This document shows, in pieces, positions 1-48,000 of a stretch of 64,000 nt of DNA. Position numbers and translations under genes: made by a program. The stretch lies in contig CAYZYT010000009.1 in assembly GCA_964482725.1 (NCBI GenBank), positions 19,832 to 83,831 of the forward strand, in the 5' to 3' direction. The notes below the pieces were generated by a model, which was not told the DNA's origin, did not search any database, and saw only the letters and a list, made by a program, of their open reading frames with translations. Source of the stretch: an uncultured bacterium (GTDB taxonomy: Bacteria > Omnitrophota > Omnitrophia > Omnitrophales > Aquincolibacteriaceae). Each line of letters opens with the position of its first letter. Position 1 is the first letter of the stretch.

Positions 1-44
1 AACTCATCGAGACGGCCGCTCCCGCACTTTCTGAAAAATATCAG

Positions 45-3000
45 TTGAGCCCCGATCAAGTTGCCAAAAGTGTTGTGCAAACCGTAAGCTCGAGCTCCGT
101 ATTTTCCGGCACCCTGACAGCCGATCAGCAAAAAGAAAATCCTTCGACGGTCCGTTTCACTCCGGCAGCGAGTTCTGAAATATCAACATCTCAAAATTCC
201 GCCATCATGAAAGCGGCTGCGACCATGGGGCGCGCGGAAGCCCTCCAGCTTGATCCCAGGACAGACGCGGGGCTCGGACAATCCGCCACGGACATCGACT
301 TCAGCGCCAGGGCTCCTGCAGTGCTTCGTGCTGAGATCCGCCCAAAGGCGGATTCATTCCAGACGCCCATCACGGTTCAAGTGGCGCCTTATCGTCAGAT
401 CAAAATGTGGGGCGAGGGGAAGCGGTTGAATATAGCCATTCCGGGCATTACGGTTGTCCCGCTCGATCTTCAGGAAAGTTCTGGCATGGATAAGGTGATT
501 GCCGTACGCCTGAGCGTTTTTGTGAAAGTTCCCGCGGCATCGAGCGAGGATGTTTTTAAAGCCTACAGGGGGGACGTTTCTTTGGCCGCGAAAAAAATCC
601 CGGCATTGGGAAAAAATAAAAGTATTGTTTTTATTCCCAAAACCCCCAAGTCCGCGGAAGTAAAGGATTACGAAAATTGGCAGAGGGTTGTGATCAGCGA
701 TAACCCTGTGAAGGTCGCCATCGATCTTGGAAAGGCGATAGAGATTTTTGTGAAGGCCCGTTCCGAGCAGCGGCGGCCGACCAAGTTTGAGCCCGTGGAT
801 CCTGACACCGTCAAAAAGATGATGGATTTTATGGCATTGATCCAGCGGCCCTTTGATTCCGGGATCCACTTCGGACTTTTCCTGGGCGTTGGGGAAATGC
901 TGGCGGGCGAGCCGGCTTCTATATTAGCGGCGATCCGGCGCGGGAATTCAGGGGAGGCTCAAATTCGTGTGAGATCGCTGATGGAACGACTGAACAAACG
1001 TGTCGTGGCGATGCCCCTCTACTTCAAGAACCTTCGGGCACTTGCTGAAAAACTGGCCGGGATGGAATTGATCGATCCAGAATATCTCGAGACTTTGCAA
1101 TCATCGCTTCGGAAGAAAGAAGAAAAAGCCAGGTCAGAAGAGAGTTCTCTTAAGTCTCAGCTCGGCAAGTCTCAGTACATCAAGCTTTCTTCGGCCACGG
1201 AGGAACGCTCTGAACTCAGAGAAAGACAGGTTTTTGAAGGGGACTTGACCACGGAGAAAACCGTTCGCGGGCATGCGGTCTTTCTTTCGGAGGATAAACA
1301 CGATTTTCAGTGGGCCATGGCCCCCGGTGGAGAATCTTTGGCTGAAACGGAGTATGAGACCTGGTTCAAGATCGTTCACGATGGGATCAACGAGCTTTTT
1401 CTTCCGCCTATGGCAAGGCATCTGAAAATCTTTATTCAAAAAAAGAGGGAAGAGGCAATAAAAAGCAAAAAGACATCCAGCGATCCCATGCTGAAGACTT
1501 CCCACCCGATCGCGCTGGTGCTGGGGGCGGTTCAGGACGGGGTTGCCAAGAATGATATCAAACAGCTTGAAAAAGGATCCGTGGAAGAGAGTCTCTTTCT
1601 TAAGTATGTTGAAGATATGGCGCGTATTTTTAAGATCCAGCGGCAGATCGTCCTTCGCTCGGGAGGCTCTGATGAAGCGGAAAAGATCATCAAGCGTCAG
1701 TTCAGTGTTGCCCTTGAGCTTATGGAGGAGAATATCGCACAAAAAGAGGAGGCACTGGACAGTCAGCGACGACGGCTTGCTTTTTTCCCGCATGCCGAGC
1801 AGCAATTGAAAGACAATGAGATGATCCTTCAGGAGGGACGGGAGGGTCCCACGCCGCTTGATGATGAATACAGGGAAGATCTTGAAGAGAAAAATGAAAA
1901 CTGGCGAGAGATCCTCGAGACGAAAGAGGAGGTCGTGAAGGCGGAAGGCCGTCATGATCTTCAGAAGATGGTTTTGAAGGGGCTGGAGAAACGATTAAAA
2001 CAAGGTGTGGAATCCGAACTGTATTTGGGGAAGACGGATGCGGAAGGGAACCCCCTTGCTCTAGGGATGAAAGACGGAGGGAGTTTGCCTTTTGTTATTT
2101 ATAGTTATGCCCTCAAAAATTTCTTGAGTAAGATTAAAAAATTTGATCTGGAGACAATCGAGGGGGCTCATGGGGCCCAGTCGAATCAGGATAGTGGTAC
2201 GGTTTTTCGTGATATTGCGATGGGTTTGACCGAACGACTGGAATTGGAAATGATCGGAGGCGTGGCGCCTCAGGAAAAAAATATTTCGATCATTTCAGAC
2301 GGAACTCAGCGGATTCTTTTTGTGAGGAGGCCGCTTTCAGCCAATGAGATCCTCCGGGAGGTTTCCCGGTATGGGGCCGACCTGGTCGGGATCGTGGCGA
2401 CTCAGAGCAGCGCCAGTGCCCACTGGGTCATTGTTGTCCGGGGAAGAAATTCCGCGCCTCCGATTTTGTTTCTTTCGGAAAAAAAATATAAGGATATGCT
2501 GAACAAGATCCAGCTCGATGAGGATGTGCTTCTTGTGCCGAGTGATGAAACGGTAGGGCGAGGCGTTTTGAAAACGAATCCTTCTCCCGAAGATTTGGAT
2601 AAGGCTCTTCGGGCCAAAAAAGAAGAAGACCTCTTGGCCCAGGGGGAGAGAAAAATCGGTCAGTTCCCGTTGGGTATTTCTGTCGGGGTCAATCTTAGCA
2701 CGCACGATATCGGAGATCCTCGGGCGAGCGGAGCCGATAATTCGGGGCTCGTCCGTAAAGACTTTTTGGATGATAAGACAAAAAGAGAGATCGAGGATGT
2801 CGGGCAGTCGATCGGGTCCGGCGACTTTAAGTTTGATGAGTGGCTCACGGTCCTGGAAAAATTAAATTTTTCCGACATGAGCAGCAAGGTCGATATTGAT
2901 TCGCTCATGAATAATTTTGTCGGCGTGCTTACGCCTGAGGCCGTGGGACGGATCCGGACCCTTTTAGGACATTTGCGGACGGTTGACGGAAGAGTCCTCC

Positions 3001-6000
3001 GCGACGATTTTTTTGAAGGCGGCAAGTACGTTCCTTTCCGGACCCTCGATCTTCAGCCCGACAGTAAAAATAAAGATCTCCTGGATGCGCTTAAGCGTCT
3101 TCATCGCCAATACCCGAAGGCCGGGCTCATCCAGCTTTCACCGGAAGAGCTCAAAAAGGATCCTCTGAGAAACGGGGTCACGGGATTTGATTTTTATCAA
3201 CATTCGAATTTGGGGAAGTTTTTTCTGATCTGGCAGGTTACGGCCCTTCTTATCGAATATGCCCAACATTTGGATTCGACGGATCAAAAAGATCCGGCGA
3301 AGCTGGCTATTCTTTTCCCCATGGTGGCTTCTCCCGAACAGTTGAAGTTCATTCAGCAGGAAATTCTTCCTGTTGCCCGAAAGCTGGCGGTTTTGAACTT
3401 TGAACGAACAGACGAATGGGATACGCAGTCTTTCCTCGCGGTGCAGGCGAAGGTCCAGAAGGCTTCCGACCGGGTTTCCTACGGAATGATGGTGGAAGTG
3501 ATGGATATCCTGAAAAATGAGTCTTTGATGGATTCCATGGTCCAAAACCCATTTGTGGAATTCTATGATATCGGGACTAACGACCTCGAAAAGGAGCTGT
3601 GGGAGAGTATTGTCAAGGCCCCCGTTGATCGAGATGTCGAAGAAGCTCAAAGGCTTTTCGGAAGATTGATGCCTGATCTGGTCATGGGGCTCGACCGTTT
3701 TGCGAGGAAATTGGCCGATTACAATATGGAAGCCGGTCGGGATCCTGCCCGGAAGCAGAAACGAATGTGCGTTTGCGGGCAGATGGGGGGGAACCAGAAA
3801 TTTCTGGCCTTGGTCGAGCGTTGGCGTCGTTTAAAAGTTCCGGTTTCTGTCAGCGTGGGTCCCGAAGACGTTAGCCATGTGCGTCACGCATTGCTGCGTT
3901 ATTCGCGCGTATCGCAATCCTCCTTGGATGAGGTGTTTGAGGTTCCAAACTATATCGATCGCCGGGCGGGAAAGTTGGCAAAGTCCCAAATGTTGATCTC
4001 AAAAAAATTCCTCAAGGTGGCTGAGGCCTGGCAGGAACGCTATGCCCGAATGGGCTACTATCATGGCTTTTACAGGGATTCCCTAGATCCCGTGACGGGG
4101 ATCGGTAGTTTTCGGGACATTCTGGTCATGCGGGATATTTACAAGCTCTTCGGAGGGAAACAGCCCGATCTTAAAGGAGCTGGAGTTGCTGAAGAGGAGG
4201 ATATGACGCGGGAGGAATTTGAAAAGCTTCTGAATTACGAGAAGGGGAAGAGCGGTCTTTTTGACGAGCAGGTTTGCGCGGCCTTACTGAGTGCTTATGA
4301 TTTTCTGAAAGGAGTGAGACAGGTCTACCGGGAAATGCAAGTGAAAGATCCTCAGAAATTTAAAGAGCCGTTCAATCTTCATACCGGAAATCTGAATGAC
4401 TTTCTCGAAGCTTATGAAGGAAAATTTGGCAAGCAGGAATGGTTGGCGAGGACTGATGCCCAACAGCGGCAGGACCAATTCTTTCGTCATTATTACGTCA
4501 TGGCGAATCATGTTTATACGTCACTGACGGGCATGGTCCACGAAGGCTACGAGGATCTTTTTGGGGCCGATTATGAAGATATCGGGCTTGTAACCGTCAT
4601 TCAGACGGAGAGGGATAGCCAACACAAAGAGGAGGCGATTCCCCTGAGGGTCCAACTTCGGAGCGGGATGTTCTTTAAGCGTGAGGTGGGGCACATTTAC
4701 CGGAAAGTCAAAGAGCTCTATATCCCTGAAGCTTATGAGAGGATGGCGTTCGAGCGCTTTTCGAGAAACCCCGCTCTGATGCTTGAGGTCTTTAGCCGGG
4801 CCGTGGTCGATGGGGACGAAGAGGTTCGTATCAGTTACGATCTCCAGAAGATCATGCGTCGGGCCATTCGGAATGCGGGTCCTGTCTCGTCCGGCGCGGA
4901 CGAGATGCTCTTTAAAAATCTGATCAAGGGCTTTTTTGCTCTCGATCATGACATCTCCTATCCGATTTGGCGCATGCACCGCTTCGGCTTTTTCTCGAAA
5001 TTTCTTCCTGATTATGATGCGATGCCCAATTTTTTCCCCGGCGACGGCCGCCGGAGCTCGGTGCATATCCAGACACTGAACGCCATGGAATTTCTGGAAA
5101 AGCTTTTCAATACGAAGGATTTCGCGTTCTTGCGGGCCGGGTTGGTGCTCCAGCAGTTGAAAGTGGATCCTCAAGATCTCACCACGCTCCGTCTGAGTCT
5201 TCTGATGCTCGGGATCGTTCGGGCCAAGTTACGCCTGAAGCCGGGGAATGTTCCGGCGCCGGCCGACATAAAAAAGATCGTCGCGGAGGCGCTTGCGGCC
5301 TTCGGGATATCCGGTCAGTCGGAGCAGGCTGAGCTTATTGCCTGGTTGATCGAGGGGGAACGGACGTTGAACCGCAATGATCTCTCCGCCCCTGAAAAGA
5401 TCCGAAAAGCGCTTGAAACGATCTTCTTGGAGGAAGGGAAAAACATTACCAGCAAAAAGTGGGACATGCTTTATCTCCTTACTTTTGTGATGAGAGCCGG
5501 CCGGGCGGAGCACGAAAAACTCGTTATGTTGAAACGCGAAGGGCCGGACTCCTCTTTGGCGAATTGCGACAAGCTTTATCTCGCCGGGAAGGTGCTGACC
5601 AAGATCTCGATCCCGCCGCAGGAGTTCGAGCAGCTTGTGGAAAAAACGCAGCGTTTGGAGCGGGATGGATTGCAGGAATTGAATCAGCCGGTCCTGATGC
5701 GGTTACTGACCGGTGAAAAAGCCGATCCGGAAGAGGAAATATCAAAGGCGTGGGCGGATTTTTCACGGAGGGAAGCCGATATTTTGGCCTATTATGAGCA
5801 AAACGAGATTCTCCCTTCCAAATACCGGGAAGCCCTCCATGCCGAAATAGACGCGATGGCGCATCAAAGGACTGTTTTCAAAACGATGTTCCTCAAGTAT
5901 GAAAAAATGGTCTCGCGCTATTACTGGAAAGGGCTCGATCCGGAAACGTTAACGCAGCAGCTTATTTGCTGCATTTCCCTGGAGGTTCTCCAGAGGCATG

Positions 6001-9000
6001 CGGATCACCGGCCGATCCTTCTTTTCAATGCGTTGCCGCAGCATTATTCGAATGCTTTTGAAATTGTATTTGGACGGGTGTCCGAAGATCCGGCGCTGCT
6101 AGCCATTTATTCCCGCATTCTCTACCAAAATGATTTTTCGATAGAAACCGTGAACATTCAAAGAGAAAAAGGCGAGGAAGGGAAGTTCATCGTTCGGTTC
6201 ATGGGGAGCTTTCCGCGTGGGAAACAGGACCTCAAGCCGGTGATGACCGCGATGCGAAAAGATCTGGCGGATATCCTTGATGCCCCGGGAGAAGCGAAAG
6301 AGAACCGGCCGGGTTGGTTCGAGGAACGGGTGCGTCGTCTTTATCGGTTGTTGGGGCCGTATTCGGAATTGGCTCTGTTCGCGGCGAATCAAAGGAATAA
6401 CCCGCTCTTTTTCAGAAATACGTTCAATCGCCATGGCGATCTGGCGGTTCAACGGAGCGGTGGGACGACCCCGACTACGGAAGTTGATTTTTTTGAAGGC
6501 GGAGGGAGAGGGAATTCTTCTTACAATACTCTCACGATCAGCACGGAAGATCGCCGGGGGCTCACCGCGCTTGTGACGAACTATCTATCCTTGATCCGGG
6601 GATTGAATATCTCCGATTTTTCTTTCGAAGATACCCTGGGGAAAAAGACCAAGATGATCGTTCGCCTGAATCATCCCCGAAAAGAAACATGGCAAGAGGC
6701 GCTCTTTTTCCGGATCGTCGGGATCTTTTTCTTTTGGAAGGCCCCTTGGAAAAAATCCAAAGATCGGCTTTCTGAAAAAGAAAAGACGCAGATCAAAGAA
6801 GAGTTGACGAACATGTTGGACGCTTTTGAAGCCGTTATTCATCGCGGACATTTCTTGAATACCTATGCCTTGAAGATCAATGCTTCGGGAACGGTCAATC
6901 CTGCGGATGTTGCGGAGAAATCTTCGGAGGCTTCATCGGAACCTGCTCCCATCGAGGTCGAAGAATCGACCGCGGAAGTGATGCCGAAAGGAGCCGTGAC
7001 GAAAGCCGTTGATTTGCCGGAAATCCCTACCGTCGGAGTGGACGATCCGTCGGCCCGCGAGTATACGATTCAGGGGAGTCTCGGTCTTCACGCGATGCCC
7101 TCGCAGTTGCTGGCTAAATTCGCAATCAATCAGTCTTTTCTTGACGAGGTGATTTTTGAGCAGAAGGGTATTCCAACGGACATGAAGTCCGTCCTCAGCC
7201 TTTTGGAGTTGGGTCAGCTATGGGGAGAGCCTGTTGTGATCAGGATCAAAGCCAAGCCGGAGGCGACGCCGGAGCAGCTCCAGGCGTTTTGGACCTGGAT
7301 TGAGGAGCTTCGGGATCCCGGAGATCCGAAAAATCTTCTCTTCTTTGCCCCGATCAAGCGGTCGGAGGTACGAGTTGAGGAAAAACAGTTTAGTGTCGGC
7401 AATCGCCTCGGTATCCATGTGCGCCCCGCGGGTGTTATCGTGACTCTGGCCGAGGCATACGCAGGCTCGCTCAAGATCAAGATCACTAAGAAGAAAGTCA
7501 CCGTCAATGCAGCAAGCATGATGGGGTTATTGACACTCGATGCCGGAAAGGGTGCCAAGGTTACCATTACCGTGGAAGGTCCCCAGGAGCAGGCTAAGGA
7601 ATTCTGGGACAAGCTCGCGTTGCTTGAGGAAGGGGGTGAGTCCCTTTTCCGTTCGGAGATCCGCGGCAAGGGAAAGATCCTGTTTGTGGATGACGATCCC
7701 GGCATTCAAATGACGGTCGCAGATTCCTTGGCTTTTGTGGGGGGCTACGAGGTGGAAAAGGCTTTCAGCGCCGACGAGGCCCTCGAAATATTGAAGAAAG
7801 GCGATTTTGTCCCCGATCTTATTATTTCGGATTTTTCTATGCCGGGGAAGACGGGCGGCGATCTTGTAAAGGCAATCCGTCTAAGCGCAAACGGGATCGC
7901 GAGAATCCCGGTGCTTATGTTCACGGCGGCCGCGGCACAAATGGATATAGAGAATCTTTATCGTGAGGGCCAGATCACCGGGACGGTGTCAAAAACAAGC
8001 GAGCCGGACAAATTCCACGCCCAGGTCGAGTGGATCCTTCAGAATGAGCAGAGTGTCCGGGAGATCCTGGCTCTTGCGGGGGAAGATGTTGCTGCCAAAG
8101 TTGCCCTGGATCAGGAGATCCTCCAATTTATGCTCCATCCAAACCAGAGCCCTCGCGTTCTAGCGAAACTCCTGGAATTAGGGATCCGTGAAGACGTTCC
8201 CCGATGGCAAGAAGTGCTTGGGGAAGTTCAAATACGCCTCCATCGCGACATCGCAAAAACGCAGGTCGCGCGGGGCCGCTCAGAAATACGGAATTTTACG
8301 GACGTGTTCAACTCTATTCTGATCGTGGATGATCGTTTGGCGAATCGTTATGCCAATGTCCAGATATTGAAAGCCCGAGGATTTAAAGGCGTGATCCATC
8401 AGGCTGCCAGTGCCGCCGAGGCCCGGGACATTATGAAGCAGCAGAAAGTCGACGTTTTGATCCTGGACAGGAAAATGCCTGGCATGCTGGGAACGGAATT
8501 TGCCCGGGAGATCCTTCGGCCGTCAGAAAAACTTGGAGTGAGCGTCGTTCTTTTTACCGCTCAAAAGAAAGAAGCGGAACAGGAATTATCGGGGATCGGT
8601 GATCGGGTTGTGATCGTAGAAAAAGAAGGGGATGATCCCGTGGGCAAGATAGTCAGCGCGCTGAATCAATTAGCCAACCGGTCCGAAACGCGGGAGATCA
8701 CTAATCGTCAGAGGATCGCGCATCTGATGTCCTATCTGGTCAATAACATGACGATGCCCTTAGTGATGGCCACAGATCGTGATGCGGTCAGCATGGAGAG
8801 CCTCAAGTCTTCGATCGGTGAGCTTGTCCTGCTATTCCGCATATTGGATGTGAAAGATATGGAGTCTCGTGGGGAAGAGCTTTTTATCCCCGCCGGGGAC
8901 GACAATGAGAACATTATTGTCCATAAAAAGACCATTGGTCTTGGCGGCAAAACGCCAGGTCAGATTTTTAAGGGAGAATCCTTGGAACAATTAGCGGCGG

Positions 9001-12000
9001 AGGTCCGGTTTGATTGGATCCTGGAAGATTTCAAGCCGGAGATCCTTGAGCTTCGTGGATGGAGGGACGCTCTTGCCATAAAGGCTGCGGCGGACCTGAG
9101 CGCTACGGAACGCAGGAACATCGCCCGTATGGCAGAGAAGATCCTTGAGAAAAGTCAGAAGACCGTAGCGCGATTGAGCCAAACCGTCACCCAAGTGAAA
9201 AAGATCCTTGTGGTCGATGATGATGTCGCGAATCGTGCTCTTTTAGAGAATCTTTTAAGGCGCCAGGGGTATACGGTCGTTGTGGCGACCAACGGAGCCG
9301 AGGCGATCAAGAAGCTTGAAGACGAACACGACATTGATTTTCTGATCACGGATTTTCACATGCCCGAGAAAACAGGCGGGGATATTCTCCAGGCGATGGC
9401 CGAGGGGAAACTTTCCAGAAAAATACCTTCAGCCCTCATGAGCGGCGGTTTGAGCGATAGCACGGTGGACCTAAAACTGTTCTGGGCGGAAGGCGTTTAT
9501 GTGGAGTTTCTTCAGAAACCCAACTTGATCAAGCCTCTCTTTGAGATCCTGAAGCGATTTGATGGCCCTGGTGCGGCGGGAGTTGGCCCGGCGAAAGCAG
9601 CCGGCTCCGAAGCTTCCTTTTCAGCGGAAGCCGTTTTAAGGATCAAGAAGATGCTGGAACTTGAAAATCGCGCCGGTGATGTGCTGGAGATGTATCAAAA
9701 AGATGTCGTTGAAGGCCGATTGCCCCGGGCGGCTTCGCTCAAACAGTTGCTAGCCTCGTTCAGGGACGGAGCGGAGAAAGAGTCTAATCTTTACAAGAGC
9801 GCAAGTTGGGTTTTAGGAGAAATAGGGGCCCGTTCCGAAATGCGGGAATCTTCCAACCGTCAAAAGATTATTAATTTGCTGCGTCATTCTCTGAGCGGGA
9901 GGATCCAAATTTTTGAAAGTGCCGAAGATGCCTCGTTCGTTTCGAAGGAAATTTTGAGAGAGACTGTGAGAGAGACCCTCGTAGTCTTTAGAGTTTTTGA
10001 TCTGGAGCTGTTTAAAGCCCGGGGAGGCCAGCTTTTTATCCCGAAAGATGACCCCAATGTATTTGCTTATCAGATCCCTTCCGCGCAGACCCGTGATGAT
10101 GGAAAAGGCGGGAGAGAGCCGGTGAAGGTCTATCAAACGTCTGTTTTTGGAGCGATGGAGAAAGGAAAAACGTTCAGTTTTTTAAATTCCGAGGATCAAG
10201 CGGCTCTGTATCAACTTTCGGAGGAAGTCGGTTTTGAGAAGATCCGTGCTGATTTTAATCCGCAAGTTGTAAAGTTGGAGGAATTCAAAAAAGAGCTTTC
10301 AACGACGGCGGATATAGCCCCTGAATTAAGATCAAGGATCAAGCTTCTTGGCAAAGAGCTCTTGGAAAAGATCGATGAACTTTCCGCGCCTTTGGCTGCG
10401 GAGCCGAGGACGATCACCGCGGTGCCGAAAAATAAGGCAAACTTGCATATTCTTGTGGTGGATGACGAAGACGGCATGCGAACGACGACGGCAAAGTTAT
10501 TGCGAAACAAGGGATATGTGGTCAGTACGGCAGTGAATGGCAAAGACGCCTTGGATAAGCTTCGAGCGGGAGGCATTGAGGGTGTGGTCTCGGATATCAC
10601 CATGCCTGAGATGGACGGGATAGCCTTGACGAATGCGATCATTGATGAGGGAATAAACGTCTTTATTTTTCTTGTAAGCGGTTATAGCTCTACGGACTTG
10701 GGTTTAGAAGGGTTCGCGAAAAAGGGGAAGAAAGTAGGGTTTTTCCAAAAACCCTATTCGCTCTCGGATTTAGACAAAGCAATCAAGGAACATGTCCGCT
10801 CGGAAGTGCGGGGAACGGAGAAAATTCAGAAGGATATTGCGGATCTGAACGGGAAGATCGTTGCCGAGATGGAAAGGATGAGTCTCCGGGTCCTGGGGAC
10901 AAAAGAGATGAAAAGGACTTCGGAAGGTCGTTCGCTTTATAGAACTTTTGATCATATGACGAGGAAAACCTCACGCGATCGTTATGTCAGCCTGGCCGAT
11001 CTGGAGTTTACTCAGCGGGACTTGGCCCTGTTTGTGCAGAATCATGCTCGTCAGGTTGCCTCTGAAAAGGCCGCGCTGGATGTTTTGGGCCGCCACCTGG
11101 ATAATCTCATCACGCAAAGAAAAAAGATCGAAGATCTCTACAAAGAACTTGGCGCGACGCGTTATGCCCCGGTTTCCACGGAGGCTGATAAACAGGCGGC
11201 GCTTGATTATATTCAGACGGCGGGGACTGTTTGGCAGATTGATCTACAGCGTTTGATCGAAAGTGTCCCCGAACAACAGACCCATTTACGGCCCTTATTG
11301 GAGTCTTTCACAGCGCCGCTCAAAACATGGATTTTGAAACCGGGATACGTTTCTCTCGAGAAGGAGCAGAGCCCGGAATATCTCGTTGGGATTTTGAATC
11401 GATTGCACAAGTATGAACGAACCGCATCGGGGGACCTTGCGGAGCATCACGAAGCTGGCACGAGGGATCTGATCACTGCGCCGCGTCGCCTTGAGATGTT
11501 CCAACTGGCCGAAGGGCTGAGCTATCTGATTGCGGCTTCGAAAAATCTGAAATGGGCTCAATCGGAATTCCCATTCGCTCGCGCGGAAGTGCGCGTGGCC
11601 GGAACTGCCGAATATAAAGAATCCGTACGGAATACCTTGCCCGTCGTTGTCGATTTACCTGTGGGGCTGGAAGTTGTTGCGGCGGCCGAGCAGCTGGGGG
11701 TCTATTCCGATCGAGGCATCGCCGCGGAACTTGAAGGGGGCATTTCCGAGGATAATATTAAGCAAGCCCGTCTTTGGATCGCGGTGAAAGTGCTCAAGGC
11801 CATGGGAGCCAGTGACGGACAGATCATGAATGAACGGCTGCGGTCATTCATGGACAAGGTGATGGCGTCGCTTCCGGGTCATATCAAAGCCGTGGCAGGC
11901 TTAGAGGCCGCGAAGGGACCGCAGTTCCACGTCTACCTGGAAGGTCTTAGTGAACAGGATTGGTCCGAGTTTGTCCGGAATTTCCCTGTGGTTTTGGGGA

Positions 12001-12437
12001 TGTTAGTCACTTTGCGCGGCAACCTCTCGATCAATGTGAAGGGTGGGGTCGAAGATGTGCGTCTGATCCAGAAAAAGTTTGATGATCTTATGACCCAAGA
12101 GGGGATCACGCTGGCGGCTGGGCAGCTGCGTATTGTCCCGGCGACAAGCCGCAACCATTTCGAATCTTTTAAAGGCTCCGAAAAAGCCGATGCCTTTATG
12201 GCCCGCCGGGAAGATCACCTGCGTGCGCGGCCCCGGAACGTCAGCAGTTTTTGGATCACCCAGGACCAGGACCGGATGGAGACGCTGGCCGCGGGGATCG
12301 CGACGGCTTTACTTCAGGTCGCTTCGGATAAGCCTATGGACCGGAACACTCTTTACAGCCCTTCCATGTTCCGGGACCTTTTAACGAACGTGATGAATGC
12401 CATCCAAGGGTATCTCCAGATCCAGACAGCGGCCTGA
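45..12437 (+). CDS. Giant multidomain PTS-like phosphorelay protein (EI-like PEP-utilizing module + 2x HPr + 4x CheY-like receiver); possibly 5'-truncated by window edge (no in-frame stop upstream of pos 45, first codon TTG)
   Basis: ORF track 4130 aa. PEP-utilizing signature motifs ILFPMVASPEQL, FYDIGTNDLEKE, CVCGQMGGNQ (cf. EI IMFPMI/FSIGTNDL/CGE-AGD). Two HPr-like GLHAMPS / GIHVRPAG motifs. Four D-D...D...K receiver domains (FVDDDP..IISDFSMPG etc.). Confidence 0.8.
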   Translation: MSPDQVAKSVVQTVSSSSVFSGTLTADQQKENPSTVRFTPAASSEISTSQNSAIMKAAATMGRAEALQLDPRTDAGLGQSATDIDFSARAPAVLRAEIRPKADSFQTPITVQVAPYRQIKMWGEGKRLNIAIPGITVVPLDLQESSGMDKVIAVRLSVFVKVPAASSEDVFKAYRGDVSLAAKKIPALGKNKSIVFIPKTPKSAEVKDYENWQRVVISDNPVKVAIDLGKAIEIFVKARSEQRRPTKFEPVDPDTVKKMMDFMALIQRPFDSGIHFGLFLGVGEMLAGEPASILAAIRRGNSGEAQIRVRSLMERLNKRVVAMPLYFKNLRALAEKLAGMELIDPEYLETLQSSLRKKEEKARSEESSLKSQLGKSQYIKLSSATEERSELRERQVFEGDLTTEKTVRGHAVFLSEDKHDFQWAMAPGGESLAETEYETWFKIVHDGINELFLPPMARHLKIFIQKKREEAIKSKKTSSDPMLKTSHPIALVLGAVQDGVAKNDIKQLEKGSVEESLFLKYVEDMARIFKIQRQIVLRSGGSDEAEKIIKRQFSVALELMEENIAQKEEALDSQRRRLAFFPHAEQQLKDNEMILQEGREGPTPLDDEYREDLEEKNENWREILETKEEVVKAEGRHDLQKMVLKGLEKRLKQGVESELYLGKTDAEGNPLALGMKDGGSLPFVIYSYALKNFLSKIKKFDLETIEGAHGAQSNQDSGTVFRDIAMGLTERLELEMIGGVAPQEKNISIISDGTQRILFVRRPLSANEILREVSRYGADLVGIVATQSSASAHWVIVVRGRNSAPPILFLSEKKYKDMLNKIQLDEDVLLVPSDETVGRGVLKTNPSPEDLDKALRAKKEEDLLAQGERKIGQFPLGISVGVNLSTHDIGDPRASGADNSGLVRKDFLDDKTKREIEDVGQSIGSGDFKFDEWLTVLEKLNFSDMSSKVDIDSLMNNFVGVLTPEAVGRIRTLLGHLRTVDGRVLRDDFFEGGKYVPFRTLDLQPDSKNKDLLDALKRLHRQYPKAGLIQLSPEELKKDPLRNGVTGFDFYQHSNLGKFFLIWQVTALLIEYAQHLDSTDQKDPAKLAILFPMVASPEQLKFIQQEILPVARKLAVLNFERTDEWDTQSFLAVQAKVQKASDRVSYGMMVEVMDILKNESLMDSMVQNPFVEFYDIGTNDLEKELWESIVKAPVDRDVEEAQRLFGRLMPDLVMGLDRFARKLADYNMEAGRDPARKQKRMCVCGQMGGNQKFLALVERWRRLKVPVSVSVGPEDVSHVRHALLRYSRVSQSSLDEVFEVPNYIDRRAGKLAKSQMLISKKFLKVAEAWQERYARMGYYHGFYRDSLDPVTGIGSFRDILVMRDIYKLFGGKQPDLKGAGVAEEEDMTREEFEKLLNYEKGKSGLFDEQVCAALLSAYDFLKGVRQVYREMQVKDPQKFKEPFNLHTGNLNDFLEAYEGKFGKQEWLARTDAQQRQDQFFRHYYVMANHVYTSLTGMVHEGYEDLFGADYEDIGLVTVIQTERDSQHKEEAIPLRVQLRSGMFFKREVGHIYRKVKELYIPEAYERMAFERFSRNPALMLEVFSRAVVDGDEEVRISYDLQKIMRRAIRNAGPVSSGADEMLFKNLIKGFFALDHDISYPIWRMHRFGFFSKFLPDYDAMPNFFPGDGRRSSVHIQTLNAMEFLEKLFNTKDFAFLRAGLVLQQLKVDPQDLTTLRLSLLMLGIVRAKLRLKPGNVPAPADIKKIVAEALAAFGISGQSEQAELIAWLIEGERTLNRNDLSAPEKIRKALETIFLEEGKNITSKKWDMLYLLTFVMRAGRAEHEKLVMLKREGPDSSLANCDKLYLAGKVLTKISIPPQEFEQLVEKTQRLERDGLQELNQPVLMRLLTGEKADPEEEISKAWADFSRREADILAYYEQNEILPSKYREALHAEIDAMAHQRTVFKTMFLKYEKMVSRYYWKGLDPETLTQQLICCISLEVLQRHADHRPILLFNALPQHYSNAFEIVFGRVSEDPALLAIYSRILYQNDFSIETVNIQREKGEEGKFIVRFMGSFPRGKQDLKPVMTAMRKDLADILDAPGEAKENRPGWFEERVRRLYRLLGPYSELALFAANQRNNPLFFRNTFNRHGDLAVQRSGGTTPTTEVDFFEGGGRGNSSYNTLTISTEDRRGLTALVTNYLSLIRGLNISDFSFEDTLGKKTKMIVRLNHPRKETWQEALFFRIVGIFFFWKAPWKKSKDRLSEKEKTQIKEELTNMLDAFEAVIHRGHFLNTYALKINASGTVNPADVAEKSSEASSEPAPIEVEESTAEVMPKGAVTKAVDLPEIPTVGVDDPSAREYTIQGSLGLHAMPSQLLAKFAINQSFLDEVIFEQKGIPTDMKSVLSLLELGQLWGEPVVIRIKAKPEATPEQLQAFWTWIEELRDPGDPKNLLFFAPIKRSEVRVEEKQFSVGNRLGIHVRPAGVIVTLAEAYAGSLKIKITKKKVTVNAASMMGLLTLDAGKGAKVTITVEGPQEQAKEFWDKLALLEEGGESLFRSEIRGKGKILFVDDDPGIQMTVADSLAFVGGYEVEKAFSADEALEILKKGDFVPDLIISDFSMPGKTGGDLVKAIRLSANGIARIPVLMFTAAAAQMDIENLYREGQITGTVSKTSEPDKFHAQVEWILQNEQSVREILALAGEDVAAKVALDQEILQFMLHPNQSPRVLAKLLELGIREDVPRWQEVLGEVQIRLHRDIAKTQVARGRSEIRNFTDVFNSILIVDDRLANRYANVQILKARGFKGVIHQAASAAEARDIMKQQKVDVLILDRKMPGMLGTEFAREILRPSEKLGVSVVLFTAQKKEAEQELSGIGDRVVIVEKEGDDPVGKIVSALNQLANRSETREITNRQRIAHLMSYLVNNMTMPLVMATDRDAVSMESLKSSIGELVLLFRILDVKDMESRGEELFIPAGDDNENIIVHKKTIGLGGKTPGQIFKGESLEQLAAEVRFDWILEDFKPEILELRGWRDALAIKAAADLSATERRNIARMAEKILEKSQKTVARLSQTVTQVKKILVVDDDVANRALLENLLRRQGYTVVVATNGAEAIKKLEDEHDIDFLITDFHMPEKTGGDILQAMAEGKLSRKIPSALMSGGLSDSTVDLKLFWAEGVYVEFLQKPNLIKPLFEILKRFDGPGAAGVGPAKAAGSEASFSAEAVLRIKKMLELENRAGDVLEMYQKDVVEGRLPRAASLKQLLASFRDGAEKESNLYKSASWVLGEIGARSEMRESSNRQKIINLLRHSLSGRIQIFESAEDASFVSKEILRETVRETLVVFRVFDLELFKARGGQLFIPKDDPNVFAYQIPSAQTRDDGKGGREPVKVYQTSVFGAMEKGKTFSFLNSEDQAALYQLSEEVGFEKIRADFNPQVVKLEEFKKELSTTADIAPELRSRIKLLGKELLEKIDELSAPLAAEPRTITAVPKNKANLHILVVDDEDGMRTTTAKLLRNKGYVVSTAVNGKDALDKLRAGGIEGVVSDITMPEMDGIALTNAIIDEGINVFIFLVSGYSSTDLGLEGFAKKGKKVGFFQKPYSLSDLDKAIKEHVRSEVRGTEKIQKDIADLNGKIVAEMERMSLRVLGTKEMKRTSEGRSLYRTFDHMTRKTSRDRYVSLADLEFTQRDLALFVQNHARQVASEKAALDVLGRHLDNLITQRKKIEDLYKELGATRYAPVSTEADKQAALDYIQTAGTVWQIDLQRLIESVPEQQTHLRPLLESFTAPLKTWILKPGYVSLEKEQSPEYLVGILNRLHKYERTASGDLAEHHEAGTRDLITAPRRLEMFQLAEGLSYLIAASKNLKWAQSEFPFARAEVRVAGTAEYKESVRNTLPVVVDLPVGLEVVAAAEQLGVYSDRGIAAELEGGISEDNIKQARLWIAVKVLKAMGASDGQIMNERLRSFMDKVMASLPGHIKAVAGLEAAKGPQFHVYLEGLSEQDWSEFVRNFPVVLGMLVTLRGNLSINVKGGVEDVRLIQKKFDDLMTQEGITLAAGQLRIVPATSRNHFESFKGSEKADAFMARREDHLRARPRNVSSFWITQDQDRMETLAAGIATALLQVASDKPMDRNTLYSPSMFRDLLTNVMNAIQGYLQIQTAA
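2330..3900 (+). other. Domain: PEP-utilizing enzyme (Enzyme I / PPDK-like) phosphohistidine region + PEP-binding TIM barrel
   Basis: SSASAHWVIVVRG (candidate phospho-His loop). ILFPMVASPEQLKFIQQEI, YDIGTNDLEKELW, RMCVCGQMGGNQKFL match conserved EI/PPDK C-terminal motifs. Confidence 0.6.
7077..7320 (+). other. Domain: HPr-like phosphocarrier #1
   Basis: EYTIQGSLGLHAMPSQLLAKFA... resembles the HPr N-terminal His15 loop and fold length. Confidence 0.55.
7380..7630 (+). other. Domain: HPr-like phosphocarrier #2
   Basis: FSVGNRLGIHVRPAGVIVTLAEAY...VTVNAASMMGLLTLDAGKGAKVTITVEG; canonical G-hH-aRPA motif and serine-region LL/G pattern. Confidence 0.65.
7672..8030 (+). other. Domain: CheY-like receiver REC1
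   Basis: KILFVDDDPGIQ...PDLIISDFSMPGKTGGDLVKAI...VLMFTA. Confidence 0.7.
8320..8600 (+). other. Domain: CheY-like receiver REC2
   Basis: ILIVDDRLANRYANVQILKARG...VDVLILDRKMPGMLGTEFAREI...VVLFTA. Confidence 0.65.
9195..9545 (+). other. Domain: CheY-like receiver REC3
   Basis: KILVVDDDVANRALLENLLRRQGYTVVVATNGAEAI...DFLITDFHMPEKTGGDILQAM. Confidence 0.7.
10440..10800 (+). other. Domain: CheY-like receiver REC4
   Basis: HILVVDDEDGMRTTTAKLLRNKGYVVSTAVNGKDALDKL...GVVSDITMPEMDGIALTNAI. Confidence 0.7.
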
Positions 12438-12648: not shown

Positions 12649-12726
12649 GTCCCCATCGTCTAGGTCGGCCTAGGACACCAGGTTTTCATCCTGGTAACAG
12701 GGGTTCAAATCCCCTTGGGGACGCCA
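12649..12726 (+). tRNA. tRNA-Glu (anticodon UUC), CCA encoded
   Basis: GTCCCCATCGTCTAGG...CCAGG-TTTTCAT-CCTGG...GGGGTTCAAATCCCCTTGGGGACGCCA; near-identical in framework to bacterial tRNA-Glu; anticodon loop TTTTCAT. Confidence 0.9.
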
Positions 12727-45029: not shown

Positions 45030-45074
45030 GTAATTACCATTAGTTAAAAGAAATAAAAATTACGGCCGAGGCAA

Positions 45075-48000
45075 ATGATCCAAAAAACATCTGCACACAA
45101 GACGCTCATTCCACGCTTTTTCCTCAAGGCGATCAGTCTGTTTACGGTAGTCGTTTTCCTCGGAACTTCCTTTCCGTCCCAGACTCTAGCGCAGATGCCT
45201 TCTACTTCCAATGTTACGGGAGGGATTGACGCCAGTCTTCTTGCCTCGGCCTCCGCCACAAGCGGAAAAGTGCAGGAGATCGTCATCCCTTCCGAACTTG
45301 GAACGATAAGCGAAGCTTATCGCGGGGAACGGGGAACGATGAACGTGGAACGTGGGGCCGAAAACGTTAGCCGTTCCCCGTTAGCCGTTCCCCGGCACGG
45401 CCGTATGGTCGTGCTGATCCAAGACGCTCACGCGGTTCCCGATGCCCAGAGGTCCGTTGAAAAACTGATCGAACATCTCCAGAAAGAATACGGCGTCACG
45501 ACCGTAGCGGTGGAAGGCGCGGAAGGGAAGCTGGACCCCACGCTTTTCCGCCTGTTTCCTGATGCGGAAAAAAGAAAAAGCATTTTTGAAGATTATCTTG
45601 CGAGCGGAGAACTTTCCGGCGCGGCGGCGGCAAGCGTGCTTTCGCCTTACACGGCGGACTATGTCGGGATGGAAGACTGGACGCTTTATCAGGACGGGGT
45701 AGCGGCGTTTCTGGCCGGCCTTGGAAAGCAGGTCGATCTCAAATCTCACATCTCAACTCTCAAATCGGAGCTGCAAAGGCTTAAAACAAAATACTATTCA
45801 GAGGAGGCGCTGGCATTTGATGCCAAACTGGGCGCATGGAATGAAAAACAGAATAATTTGACGGAGCTTTTGAGCTATCTTGCTAAGTTCGTCGAGGTCA
45901 ACGCGCAACGCACAACGCTCAACGTATTATTTGAGGCGTTGGCGCAAGAGAGGAAGGCTGCCCCGAAGCTTGAATCGGAAGTAAAACAGCTTGCCAAGTA
46001 TGTCCACGAGACTGCGCCGAGTGCGAAACTGAACGGACTGGTCCAGGATTACCGGACCGGGCGCTTATCCCTCGCGGCTTTTGCGTATGAGCTTACCGAA
46101 CTCATCTCTGGCAACAAGTCCGTCATTCTGAGCCCGAAGGGCGAAGAATCTCAAAAAAGAGATCCTTCGGTTTTGCCTCAGGATGACGTGAAGATTGTTG
46201 TTTCGGCTGAACTCCGATCGATCATCCAAAACCACGAAAAACTCGTTCAGATGAAAGGGCCTGCATTTATCAAAGAGCTGGAGGCTTTCGTGGAAGACGT
46301 CCGGGCAAAACTTCATACGACACCGGAAGCGAAGGCGGTTGCCGTGCTGGCCAAGCAGTTGCAGCTGCTGGAGAAGCTCTCAACGTTTGAATTGTCGCGG
46401 AGCGAATGGGAAGAACTACGAGCGGGGAACGGGGAACGGGGAACGTGGAACGGGGATGAAAGTATCGATATCTCCCAAAAAAGGATCCTCGATCTTTATC
46501 ACGCACCGCTTGTGGCCGATTTTCTTTCTTTTTATGAAATAGCAATTAAACGCGAAGCCGTTTTTAAGGAGAAGCTTTTTGACCTGTTAGGCGTTAACGT
46601 TTCCCGTTTCCCGTTACCCGCTCCCTACGCCACAAATTCTGTCGCATTTGTGGCGGGCGGCTTCCATACAGGCGGCCTCGCGGCGAAACTCAAGGAACAG
46701 GATATTCCCTATGTCGTCATCTCGCCGGCGATGAAAGAAGTGCCGCAGGACAATCGCTACTTTGAACATATGCAGGGCAAGGTGTCGTGGCGTTCTTACT
46801 TTAAACCGCATAGCGGACGGATTGATCTATTTGATGCCTTTAACCGTGCTACGACAGAAAAACTTTTAGGGGGTAGGGGACAGGGGATAGGCGATAGAAA
46901 ACTAAACCCTAAACCCTATACGCTATACGCTAAGGAATGGCGCGATTCGATCATCCGCAATCTTGCCGCCTCCGGCCGTGTTGCGGAACATGCAAAATAC
47001 ACACATTTCATTGACGAGCAAGCCGCCGGAAATTCCGAAGAGTTTCAGGGGCTCAAACAAACCTGGACCGCGAAACTTGAGCGATTCATCGAAAAACTGC
47101 AGTTCCTTGGTAAGAACAATCAGATCAACGAAGCGAATGTGGCGAAGTTGCTTTCTCAGCCAGCCAACCAGACGCCTTATGCGGTTCCCCTGGTTCCGGG
47201 TGCGACCATTCCCGAAAGCTTTTCAGGAGGTGAACGTGCAACCCACAGGGGCTGGACAGAAAGCGTTCTGACGGACAACGCGCAGCGAGAAATACGAAAA
47301 CCTGAAGCGTTGACCCCTGACCGTAAAACGTTGCCTGCGGCCCAAGGCCGACGTTCCGAGGTGAGAATCTCAGGGGCGAGTCGAGCTGGGGAGAATCTCG
47401 CCCATGATGTGCGTCCGCAAGTTTCGATTGTCATTGAAACGACGCTCAGGGATGAGGTTTTTTTGAACCAACTCGAGAAATATTTTTCCTCGGAGAAGAG
47501 TTCGGAGATCAACAAACAAGTGATCATCGCCGTCGACGGGCGCAGTCAAGCGCTTCAACGCGAACGTTTTGAAAAGCTCAAACGACTGATCAGAGGATTT
47601 GATCCCGAGAAATCAGTTTCCCATGTCCAGTTCGTGCTCGTTCCCGGAACGGGGGCCGTGGGACAGGGGATCCGGAACGGGATTGCCGTTTCGACCGGGG
47701 ACGTCGTTGTTTTGGCAGATGATCGCGCGCCGCTAGACGACGAGATCTATCTTGCTTTGGCGTCACCCGTTCTTCAGAAAAAATCAGAGGCAGTCTATGA
47801 TGCGTCCGGTCTTTACTCGGCGATCAAAACGCGGACGATGAAAGAAGTGCGGTGGAGCAAACGCGGGCCTTTCAGAGACGCAGAGATCAAAGCCAAATTT
47901 GAGCGTCTTGCTTATAAAGCTCAAGTATCTTCCGTTTTATCGTCCGAAGAGCAGGCGCGTATTTCTGCTCGCCCAGGTGTCTCAATTTTCGAGCGCGTTC

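Follow-up and report, generated by a model that had tools for sequence, protein, structure and literature searches.

The window analysed here, a stretch of 64,000 nucleotides (nt) from contig CAYZYT010000009.1 of an uncultured Omnitrophota bacterium, opens within a giant gene. The encoded protein combines domains resembling Enzyme I (EI) and HPr of the phosphoenolpyruvate (PEP)-dependent phosphotransferase system (PTS) with four response-regulator receiver domains. The reading frame from nt 3 to 12434 comprises 4,144 codons without a stop and is closed by the stop codon at 12435-12437 on the forward strand. Its 5' end is open, with no in-frame stop before it in the window; the TTG listed as start at nt 45 is a window-edge artefact, being merely the first start-like codon inside the edge. 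The full-length protein, P0004, has 4,781 amino acids (aa), the last 4,144 of which are 100% identical to the window translation, while 637 N-terminal codons fall 5' of the window. In contig L003, a Logan assembly of run SRR12261223, the gene starts 1,911 nt 5' of window nt 3; with an alternative in-frame ATG 5 codons further 5', the N-terminus would read MTPANMKSMTLRG, as in homologues. The suspicion voiced in the earlier note, that the open reading frame (ORF) might be 5'-truncated, was thus borne out. Residue numbers refer to the window translation unless P0004 is named. The following features were assigned to the giant gene.

3-12437, forward strand: C-terminal 4,144 codons and stop codon of P0004 (stop-free frame, identical full-length protein, independent contig)
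27-2378, forward strand: mostly helical region without characterisation, aa 9-792, preceded by the head domain and followed by the EI-like module (no Pfam match)
2379-3890, forward strand: EI-like module, aa 793-1296, with phosphohistidine 'swivel' domain and PEP-binding barrel (PF02896, profile comparison to EI)
4020-7022, forward strand: putative GlnD/GlnE-like regulatory region, aa 1340-2340 (AlphaFold2 model and one ACT match in the family)
6015-6278, forward strand: ACT-like unit 1, within the GlnD/GlnE-like region
6480-6731, forward strand: ACT-like unit 2, within the same region
7050-7322, forward strand: HPr1, aa ~2350-2440 (Pfam PTS-HPr, family alignment)
7380-7595, forward strand: HPr2, aa 2460-2531 (Pfam, alignment to HPr structures)
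7662-8042, forward strand: receiver 1, phospho-acceptor D2610 (Pfam, CheY alignment)
8298-8672, forward strand: receiver 2, phospho-acceptor D2822 (Pfam, CheY alignment)
8682-9188, forward strand: X domain copy 1, aa 2894-3062 (internal repeat, no Pfam match)
9186-9572, forward strand: receiver 3, phospho-acceptor D3117 (Pfam, CheY alignment)
9834-10436, forward strand: X domain copy 2, aa 3278-3478 (internal repeat)
10431-10808, forward strand: receiver 4, phospho-acceptor D3531 (Pfam, CheY alignment)
10812-11579, forward strand: region without characterisation between receiver 4 and the C-terminal domain (no Pfam match, weakly conserved in a few members)
11580-12434, forward strand: family-wide conserved C-terminal domain, aa 3860-4144, starting at RAEVR

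That this frame results from a chimeric assembly, or is a decayed pseudogene staying open by chance, is extremely improbable. Both the window and the contig of the homologue P0001 start inside the gene, and a word-index protein search with aa 1-2340 returned 3 homologues only and missed the identical P0004, which an exhaustive profile search recovered. However, L003 and the window agree at every position of their 12,480-nt overlap, P0004 is present at full length in both NCBI and Logan, about 30 homologues show the same module order with conserved catalytic residues, and GC content and GC skew are even along the whole giant frame. An assembly chimera, which the earlier note had named as a possible refutation, was rejected because the second assembly is identical and because an Omnitrophota-only family of about 30 members shares the module order. 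The single ORF of more than 12 kb is therefore unbroken, and it encodes a genuine Omnitrophota protein.

The EI-like module matches the Pfam family PEP-utilizers_C (PF02896) with 36.1 bits in the whole protein and 43.7 bits in the excised segment (cut-off 22.8). Among ten members of the family described below that are shorter than 5 kaa (thousand amino acids), seven match PF02896, the best with an E-value of 3e-21. Comparison of the family alignment with E. coli EI by hhalign yielded a single colinear match of 352 columns, which spans EI residues 175-536 with a probability of 97.6% and an E-value of 4e-12; identity in the aligned part is about 22%, and the EI sequence used agrees with the portions visible in PDB alignments. 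His807, situated in the motif SSASAHW (at aa 802; His codon nt 2421-2423), is aligned to H189 of EI. In an alignment of four members with 25-73% identity, the His of SSASAH, the Arg of GLxR and the motifs RTxD...D.K, FP, M.E, NDL and CG are invariant, and the same residues are invariant in a full-length alignment of eight members. Accordingly, the equivalents of EI H189, R296, R332, K340, E431, N454/D455 and C502 are all conserved, while the R358 position is occupied by Lys or Arg, shifted by one, and an insertion of about 80 aa separates the R296 and R332 strands. Profile searches against the PDB retrieved PEP synthase (PpsA; E-value 1e-6) and several Enzyme I structures, 2hwg among those aligned (2e-5), and these alignments place the conserved residues on EI H189, R296, the E431 region, N454/D455 and C502.

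Because a match to EI 1-174 and a Pfam match to PF00391 are both missing, the module is classed as an EI-like member of the PEP-utilising superfamily and not as a PtsI orthologue. Its best PDB sequence match is PEP synthase rather than EI, and subfamily placement is thus left at the superfamily level. As in EI (PtsI) and EI-Ntr (PtsP), the swivel phosphohistidine domain is followed by the PEP barrel, colinear with EI 175-536, and as in EI-Ntr the module is fused to a putative metabolite-sensing module. However, the HPr-binding helical subdomain and the GAF domain of these enzymes are undetectable in the giant protein, the sensor of EI-Ntr is the N-terminal GAF domain whereas that of the giant protein would be C-terminal and GlnD-like, and neither PtsI nor PtsP is embedded in a chain of 4.8 kaa.

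Downstream of this module, Pfam recovers two stretches of PTS-HPr (PF00381; 89.9-99 bits) and four of Response_reg (PF00072; 223 bits). HPr1 carries the equivalent of His15 of HPr at H2363 (GLHAMP at 2361; His codon nt 7089-7091). In HPr2 this residue is H2472 (GIHVRPAG at 2470; His codon nt 7416-7418), the equivalents of Arg17 and Ser46 are kept as well, and the domain aligns to HPr structures of the Gram-positive genera Enterococcus and Bacillus with an E-value of 1e-9. Across the HPr-like domains of the family, His15 is kept in 17 of 20 and Arg17 in 10 of 20. Alignment with CheY revealed that all four receivers keep the equivalents of D12, D13, D57 and K109; the residue at CheY position 87 is Thr or Ser in receivers 1, 2 and 4 and ambiguous in receiver 3. 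Judged by these pockets, the four receivers look phosphorylatable. The earlier note had proposed the EI-like phosphohistidine and barrel module, two HPr domains and four receivers from the DNA, and this inventory stands: PF02896, PF00381 twice and PF00072 four times were recovered as it expected, PF00391 was not, the three histidines that it named are present, with that of the EI-like module invariant in the family, and the four receiver aspartates lie in conserved pockets.

Receivers 3 and 4 are each directly preceded by a copy of the X domain, a repeat of 170-200 aa with the conserved motifs NRQ+I..LL, FR[IV]FD, ARGG.LFIP and YQT, which is found in only four family proteins (P0003, P0005 and P0018 besides P0004) and in every case begins directly behind an RSE.R motif and ahead of a receiver. 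An assignment of this domain as an HPt/DHp-like histidine carrier was rejected, since it lacks an invariant His. The C-terminal domain adopts a three-layer alpha/beta fold with the conserved end ...AIQGY..I..AA; in the PDB it has only a marginal match (E-value 0.009) to the small Listeria protein 4r1h (Lmo0741), for which no function is stated. At E<=10, Pfam gave nothing credible for aa 1-700, aa 1340-2340, the inter-receiver linkers and the last 544 aa, and the only match to an EII family in the giant protein is a spurious one to PTSIIB_sorb (E-value 0.094).

The interval between the EI-like module and HPr1 had been described in the earlier note as about 2 kb of uncharacterised sequence, a description that can now be replaced. 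An AlphaFold2 model of aa 1340-2340, calculated with 13 family sequences (pLDDT 73, pTM 0.74), comprises a helical/beta-sheet part resembling a nucleotidyltransferase (NTase), a long all-helical HD-like part and two beta-alpha-beta-beta-alpha-beta units. This succession resembles the NTase, HD, ACT-ACT order of GlnD, and a Pfam ACT match is present in one family member. The region itself has no Pfam match and no sequence or profile match in the PDB, and a Foldseek search of the model against the PDB returned nothing significant. In contrast to GlnD and GlnE, the G[GS]...DxD motif and the H/D metal ligands of the HD domain are not found, and the 13-member alignment contains no invariant or near-invariant Asp, Glu or His at the catalytic positions of either domain. 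With moderate confidence, the model points to a catalytically degenerate GlnD/GlnE-like regulatory module. Since no catalytic residues are conserved, it probably acts as a sensor.

A profile built on the stretch that separates the EI-like module from the first HPr retrieved only 33 cluster representatives among 1.84 billion proteins, mostly 2-7.8 kaa in length with a few short fragments. These homologues, from NCBI, JGI, ENA and Logan, share 20-70% identity, and the source organism, where named, is always Candidatus Omnitrophota. Local module searches showed that about 20 of the 33 share the order head, variable stretch, EI-His, EI-barrel, midA, midB, HPr, receivers and C-terminal domain, with none to three HPr domains and none to four receivers detected per protein. 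Pfam searches of the ten members below 5 kaa gave PEP-utilizers_C in seven, Response_reg in seven and PTS-HPr in four. In the databases the proteins carry automatic names such as 'putative PEP-binding protein', 'HPr family phosphocarrier protein', 'response regulator' and 'PTS system EI component'. Full-text literature searches on fusions of EI or HPr with receivers, on the motif described below and on polyproteins or the PTS in Omnitrophota found nothing relevant and no description of such an architecture. The earlier note was not aware of a description either; the protein is not a one-off, however, as about 30 relatives have been deposited under automatic names.

Two preprints treat giant 'multi-enzyme' proteins of the same phylum (bioRxiv 10.1101/2023.11.21.568195; 10.64898/2026.06.07.730766). 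Like P0004, the proteins of both have a signal- or transmembrane-bearing N-terminus followed by an unannotated N-terminal region, and many unrelated Pfam domains, receivers among the frequent ones, are tiled along each chain; P0004 with its 4.8 kaa is smaller than the size classes studied there. Neither preprint mentions HPr or a delimiter motif, and in the 2026 preprint, the only one searched for these two families, neither PF02896 nor PF00381 occurs. In conclusion, P0004 is a PTS-like multiphosphoryl protein that belongs to the giant proteins of Omnitrophota; its architecture combines known parts in a way that the literature searched does not describe.

The modules of the giant protein are set apart by a short peptide motif, RSE-phi-R, which occurs in the inter-domain linkers.

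Starting at 759 (759-773), 1206, 7359, 7650, 8277, 8679, 9831 and 10797, forward strand: RSE-phi-R copies
Starting at 327 and 11580, forward strand: RAE.R variants

The giant ORF contains 8 copies of R-S-E-x-R against 0.09 expected, with a maximum of 2 in 2,000 shuffles. Their codons differ synonymously between copies, which argues for selection on the peptide; a DNA-level repeat as source of the motif was rejected for this reason. The 33 family proteins hold 187 copies, compared to 3.7 expected from composition, with Leu, Met, Val, Ala or Ile in position 4, and near-variants remain at background (RTE.R 3, RSD.R 0, KSE.K 3). When six domain models covering 42% of the residues were considered, only 6 of the 187 motifs were located more than 10 aa inside a domain, compared to 79 expected. 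In P0004 the motif stands 4-6 residues ahead of the first strand of HPr2 and of receiver 1, lies just past the last helix of receivers 2 and 4 and opens both X domains, while RAEVR opens the C-terminal domain; the resulting units measure 97 aa for HPr2 and 134 aa for receiver 2. Further N-terminal, the region of aa 9-792 contains RAEIR (aa 109), RSEQR (aa 253) and RSELR (aa 402), and the RSE of the latter (R1039/S1040/E1041 in P0004) is positionally invariant in eight family members of the full-length alignment. BLAST homology blocks between family members begin and end at the motif. Thus the 70%-identical core common to P0004 and P0001 stops at RSEVR 2453, beyond which the modules of the two proteins differ, so that orthologues with such a core carry different downstream cargo. 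The motif is not described in the literature searched.

At its N-terminus, P0004 displays a signal-peptide-like segment, MKSMTLRG-ISLFVAIAFSMTTLI-SNPSAALAA, with an AxA site, which is the sole strongly hydrophobic stretch outside the globular domains. It is followed by a head domain of about 600 aa (P0004 aa 1-640 together with the signal-like segment), the last residues of which are encoded at window nt 3-26. The head is conserved in 8-13 family members and characterised by the motifs QDAH.NPE, GLEGA.GE, LRDFLKERSRRK, GGFHT.GI and DLSAYFKVKNPF. It has no Pfam match at E<=10 and no sequence or profile match in the PDB. The pattern QDAH...E...GGFH might resemble that of the Tiki/TraB/ChaN superfamily, a likeness for which no claim is made. 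A contig scan that used the first 700 aa as its only query returned no relatives; a head-domain profile later did. Applied to one genome per species (GTDB), this profile found 241 stretches, and the records kept are all of Omnitrophota type, often with several heads per genome and with varied cargo. The contig of P0001 (L002 nt 11) starts in the 5' part of its giant gene, just past the head domain, so that P0001 is also 5'-truncated; this may stem from assembly trouble due to the multi-copy head domain.

A second gene of this kind is present in the window.

45057-63998, forward strand: second giant ORF of at least 6,314 codons, probable start ATG 45075, running off the 3' end
45075-46900, forward strand: head domain of the second giant ORF (phmmer E-value 7e-26)

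Like P0004, this ORF opens with a signal-like segment and the head domain, and it continues with a GT2 glycosyltransferase, inositol monophosphatase, APH, patatin, cytidine deaminase, the integral membrane protein MarC, VWA and AAA_5. Nine RSE.R motifs (nt 47352-63891) are placed between its modules, with units of 343 aa for patatin, 275 aa for the deaminase and 268 aa for MarC. P0004 is therefore one case of a head-plus-cargo class, in which a conserved delimiter sets the individual modules apart. The association between motif and giant ORFs was measured in 80 loci (L004-L083) kept from the 241 head-domain stretches. Per 1,000 aa, ORFs bearing the head contain 0.88 motifs and other frames of at least 1,000 aa contain 0.54, compared to 0.14 in frames of 500-1,000 aa and 0.04, near the compositional expectation, in frames below 500 aa. 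However, the motif is absent in some lineages of these loci, although their ORFs are as long and carry the head domain too, and one family member of 6,580 aa has no motif at all.

Standalone Omnitrophota patatins (P0054, P0055 and P0057), proteins of ordinary size, are relatives of one cargo module of the second ORF. They have the N-terminal segment [KR][GA]-I-[SA]-hydrophobic and a C-terminus in ...SA/AA in common with the giants, but no RSE.R motif. Likewise, no motif was found in 54,287 aa of other matches to the patatin unit (P0059-P0125), whose sources, where named, are mostly other phyla. The shared termini hint at a common sorting signal at both ends of patatins and giants, and a loose likeness to class III (prepilin-type) signals may be seen in the basic-Gly/Ala-hydrophobic N-terminus. 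In P0004, the signal-like segment could either anchor the chain, be removed together with the head or indicate export.

In the family, the signal-like N-terminus and the head of about 600 aa are followed in fixed order by a variable region, the EI-like module, the GlnD-like module, HPr domains, receivers and the C-terminal alpha/beta domain, and we propose as the most likely mechanism that these parts form a PEP-driven assembly. In this assembly the EI-like module would autophosphorylate His807 from PEP, as suggested by conservation of the complete EI catalytic set, and the phosphoryl group would pass to the His15-type histidines of the tethered HPr domains, for which the conserved His and Arg and the co-occurrence of EI and HPr in the family speak. 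Both steps are likely. Gating of this flux by a metabolite, sensed through the ACT domains of the degenerate GlnD-like module, is plausible on the grounds of its predicted fold. The four intact receivers may constitute the read-out or control layer, phosphorylated either by the histidines of HPr or EI, which would be unprecedented, or by an adjacent kinase with PAS, HisKA and HATPase domains, which would be conventional. Joined by RSE-phi-R, the modules might either stay together in one tethered chain or be released by cleavage as EI-GlnD-like-HPr1, HPr2, receiver and C-terminal products. For this PEP-driven assembly as a whole, whether tethered or cut, we consider the balance to be even.

The first part of this scheme has a counterpart in PTS multiphosphoryl transfer proteins such as Rhodobacter capsulatus FruB(HI), E. 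coli PtsA/FryA and DhaM, in which EI-type and HPr-type domains likewise share one chain and the phosphoryl group is passed intramolecularly from PEP to His to His. However, neither the giant protein nor the 64-kb window contains EIIA, EIIB or EIIC, and the protein, about 5 times larger, adds four receivers, the GlnD-like module, the head and the C-terminal domain. With hybrid kinases and His-Asp phosphorelays (ArcB, RcsC-RcsD, CheA-CheY) it shares several canonical receivers with intact pockets in one polypeptide, yet it lacks their HisKA, HATPase_c and HPt domains, so that its only His carriers are of EI and HPr type.

Several observations weigh against the proposed assembly. The hhalign match leaves EI 1-174 with the HPr-binding N-terminal subdomain (~25-145) uncovered, and the region preceding the module has no Pfam match; PF00391 was not recovered even at E<=10, although hhalign aligned His807 to EI His189. 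In HPr1, the Arg17 position is occupied by Met. Receiver number varies within the family from none detected to four, and Pfam finds HPr in only 4 of 10 members. Pfam detects no HisKA, HATPase or HPt domain in the giant protein, and we know of no precedent for transfer from HPr to a receiver Asp. If the signal-like N-terminus drives export, the protein would be placed where PEP is absent. Finally, unrelated enzymes are concatenated in the second ORF, so that co-linearity is no proof of coupling; together with the delimiters, this makes it weaker evidence for coupling than the earlier note assumed.

For the last step of the scheme, candidate donors are encoded beside two of the giant genes.

L003 8030-9484, reverse strand, outside the window: PAS-HisKA-HATPase kinase, divergent, about 0.5 kb upstream of the giant gene start
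L001 347-3121: PAS kinase, AraC-type response regulator and ABC-F gene, upstream of the distant homologue P0003

These PAS kinases are possible conventional donors for the receivers. The wiring could then be conventional throughout: receivers would be substrates of ordinary kinases, in the first place the upstream PAS-HisKA-HATPase protein, and would regulate the EI/HPr module or merely be co-expressed with it, whereas the EI/HPr flow would end on histidines without any His(HPr)-to-Asp step. The known receiver donors are all HisKA/HPt-type proteins or small-molecule phosphodonors, and the missing HPt and HisKA domains as well as the variable receiver copy number agree with this wiring. Against it, the receivers follow HPr in the same order in most members, seven of ten members have both PEP-utilizers_C and Response_reg, and the synteny with a kinase is seen in two loci only. 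We regard purely conventional wiring as a serious alternative, though one to be doubted. Nevertheless, because the protein contains neither HisKA nor HPt and a PAS kinase is encoded just upstream, the direct relay from PEP via His to Asp is plausible but unproven: transfer from HPr or EI histidines to the receivers is possible, and phosphorylation by the PAS kinase is at least as likely. For the relay claimed in the earlier note this means that the catalytic and acceptor residues are indeed intact, while their connection to Asp is an inference. In short, its observation is confirmed and its interpretation partly supported.

The other alternatives concern the fate of the chain rather than its chemistry. 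The ORF could encode a polyprotein precursor, cut at RSE-phi-R after one translation into an EI/GlnD-like/HPr1 enzyme of about 2,050 aa, an HPr of 97 aa, receivers of 134-384 aa that stand alone or carry an X domain, and the C-terminal domain, all of which would act as an ordinary set of PTS-like and response-regulator proteins. Such processing fits the chemistry of the proposed assembly and denies only the single polypeptide, a claim of the earlier note that holds for the ORF, whereas the mature form may differ in view of the delimiters and the second concatenated ORF. It would account for the motif excess in ORF and family with variants at background, the avoidance of domain interiors, inter-motif units of natural size in both ORFs, the rise of motif density with ORF length in the 80 Omnitrophota loci, the homology breaks at the motif and the standalone patatin homologues devoid of it. 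Moreover, the cleavage points of Omnitrophota giant proteins are stated to be unknown (bioRxiv 10.1101/2023.11.21.568195). However, no protease domain was identified in protein, family or window, the motif is missing from some head-bearing lineages with long ORFs and from one family member of 6,580 aa, and a conserved linker could also be a docking, modification or recombination-junction signature. Proteolytic processing at the motif is possible, but a polyprotein proper is rather unlikely. MARTX-type multi-effector toxins and viral polyproteins likewise combine conserved ends, exchangeable internal modules and short delimiters; in contrast to these, the giant protein has no identified cysteine-protease or other processing domain, and its delimiter sequence is unrelated. 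We offer only tentatively, as an unlikely extension, that RSE-phi-R is a general processing or delimiter signal of Omnitrophota giants, in which signal and head lead exchangeable cargo that is cut or individuated there, so that the giant ORF would be a translationally fused operon for a new PEP-driven pathway with transfer from HPr-His to receiver-Asp. Less probable still is exported or injected effector cargo, with N-terminus and head routing the chain or its processed modules out, for instance into prey or host, where they would consume PEP or disturb host signalling. This would be in line with the basic-Gly/Ala-hydrophobic segment and AxA site in all family members, the second ORF and the standalone patatins, with a head common to ORFs of unrelated cargo and present in multiple copies per genome, and with the description of Omnitrophota as predatory or host-dependent, their giant proteins mostly bearing signals or transmembrane segments. 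However, integral membrane MarC in the second ORF is unlike a soluble secreted toxin, the EI-GlnD-like-HPr core shows the conservation expected of a housekeeping regulator, and no secretion genes are adjacent in the window; we consider export very unlikely.

The neighbourhood of the giant gene is otherwise unrelated to the PTS: the 20 neighbouring ORFs in the 64-kb window include neither EII nor HPr kinase genes nor any others of the PTS.

12649-12726: tRNA-Glu, directly 3' of the giant gene

The tRNA gene is followed by a minus-strand ORF of 157 aa without Pfam match and by DUF6804 and MORN-repeat genes. Further downstream are genes for a hydrolase, a glycosyltransferase, a deacetylase, MnmA, YdjC, LeuRS, a GH35-family glycosidase, ComEC, HolA and MurJ. 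Upstream of the window, L003 contains tsf, pyrH, frr, Fic, alcohol dehydrogenase and ABC-F protein genes besides the PAS-HisKA-HATPase kinase. At two homologous loci (L001 22378-25639; L002 11342-14743) the giant gene is followed by an island with serine recombinase, DUF2924 and integrase genes, to which restriction-modification genes are added in L002; the region 3' of the giant gene looks like an integration hot spot.

If the EI-like module does phosphorylate receivers via HPr-type histidines, PEP availability would be wired straight into two-component-type signalling, a link so far seen only indirectly, for example in the cross-talk between PTS and chemotaxis. The putative GlnD-like sensor beside the relay would recall the nitrogen PTS. 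The most interesting by-product is the delimiter motif together with the generic head domain. RSE-phi-R provides a practical rule for splitting giant proteins for annotation and structure prediction, and combined with the shared head it offers a testable handle on the question posed in the Omnitrophota literature, whether these giants act as one chain or as many cut proteins.

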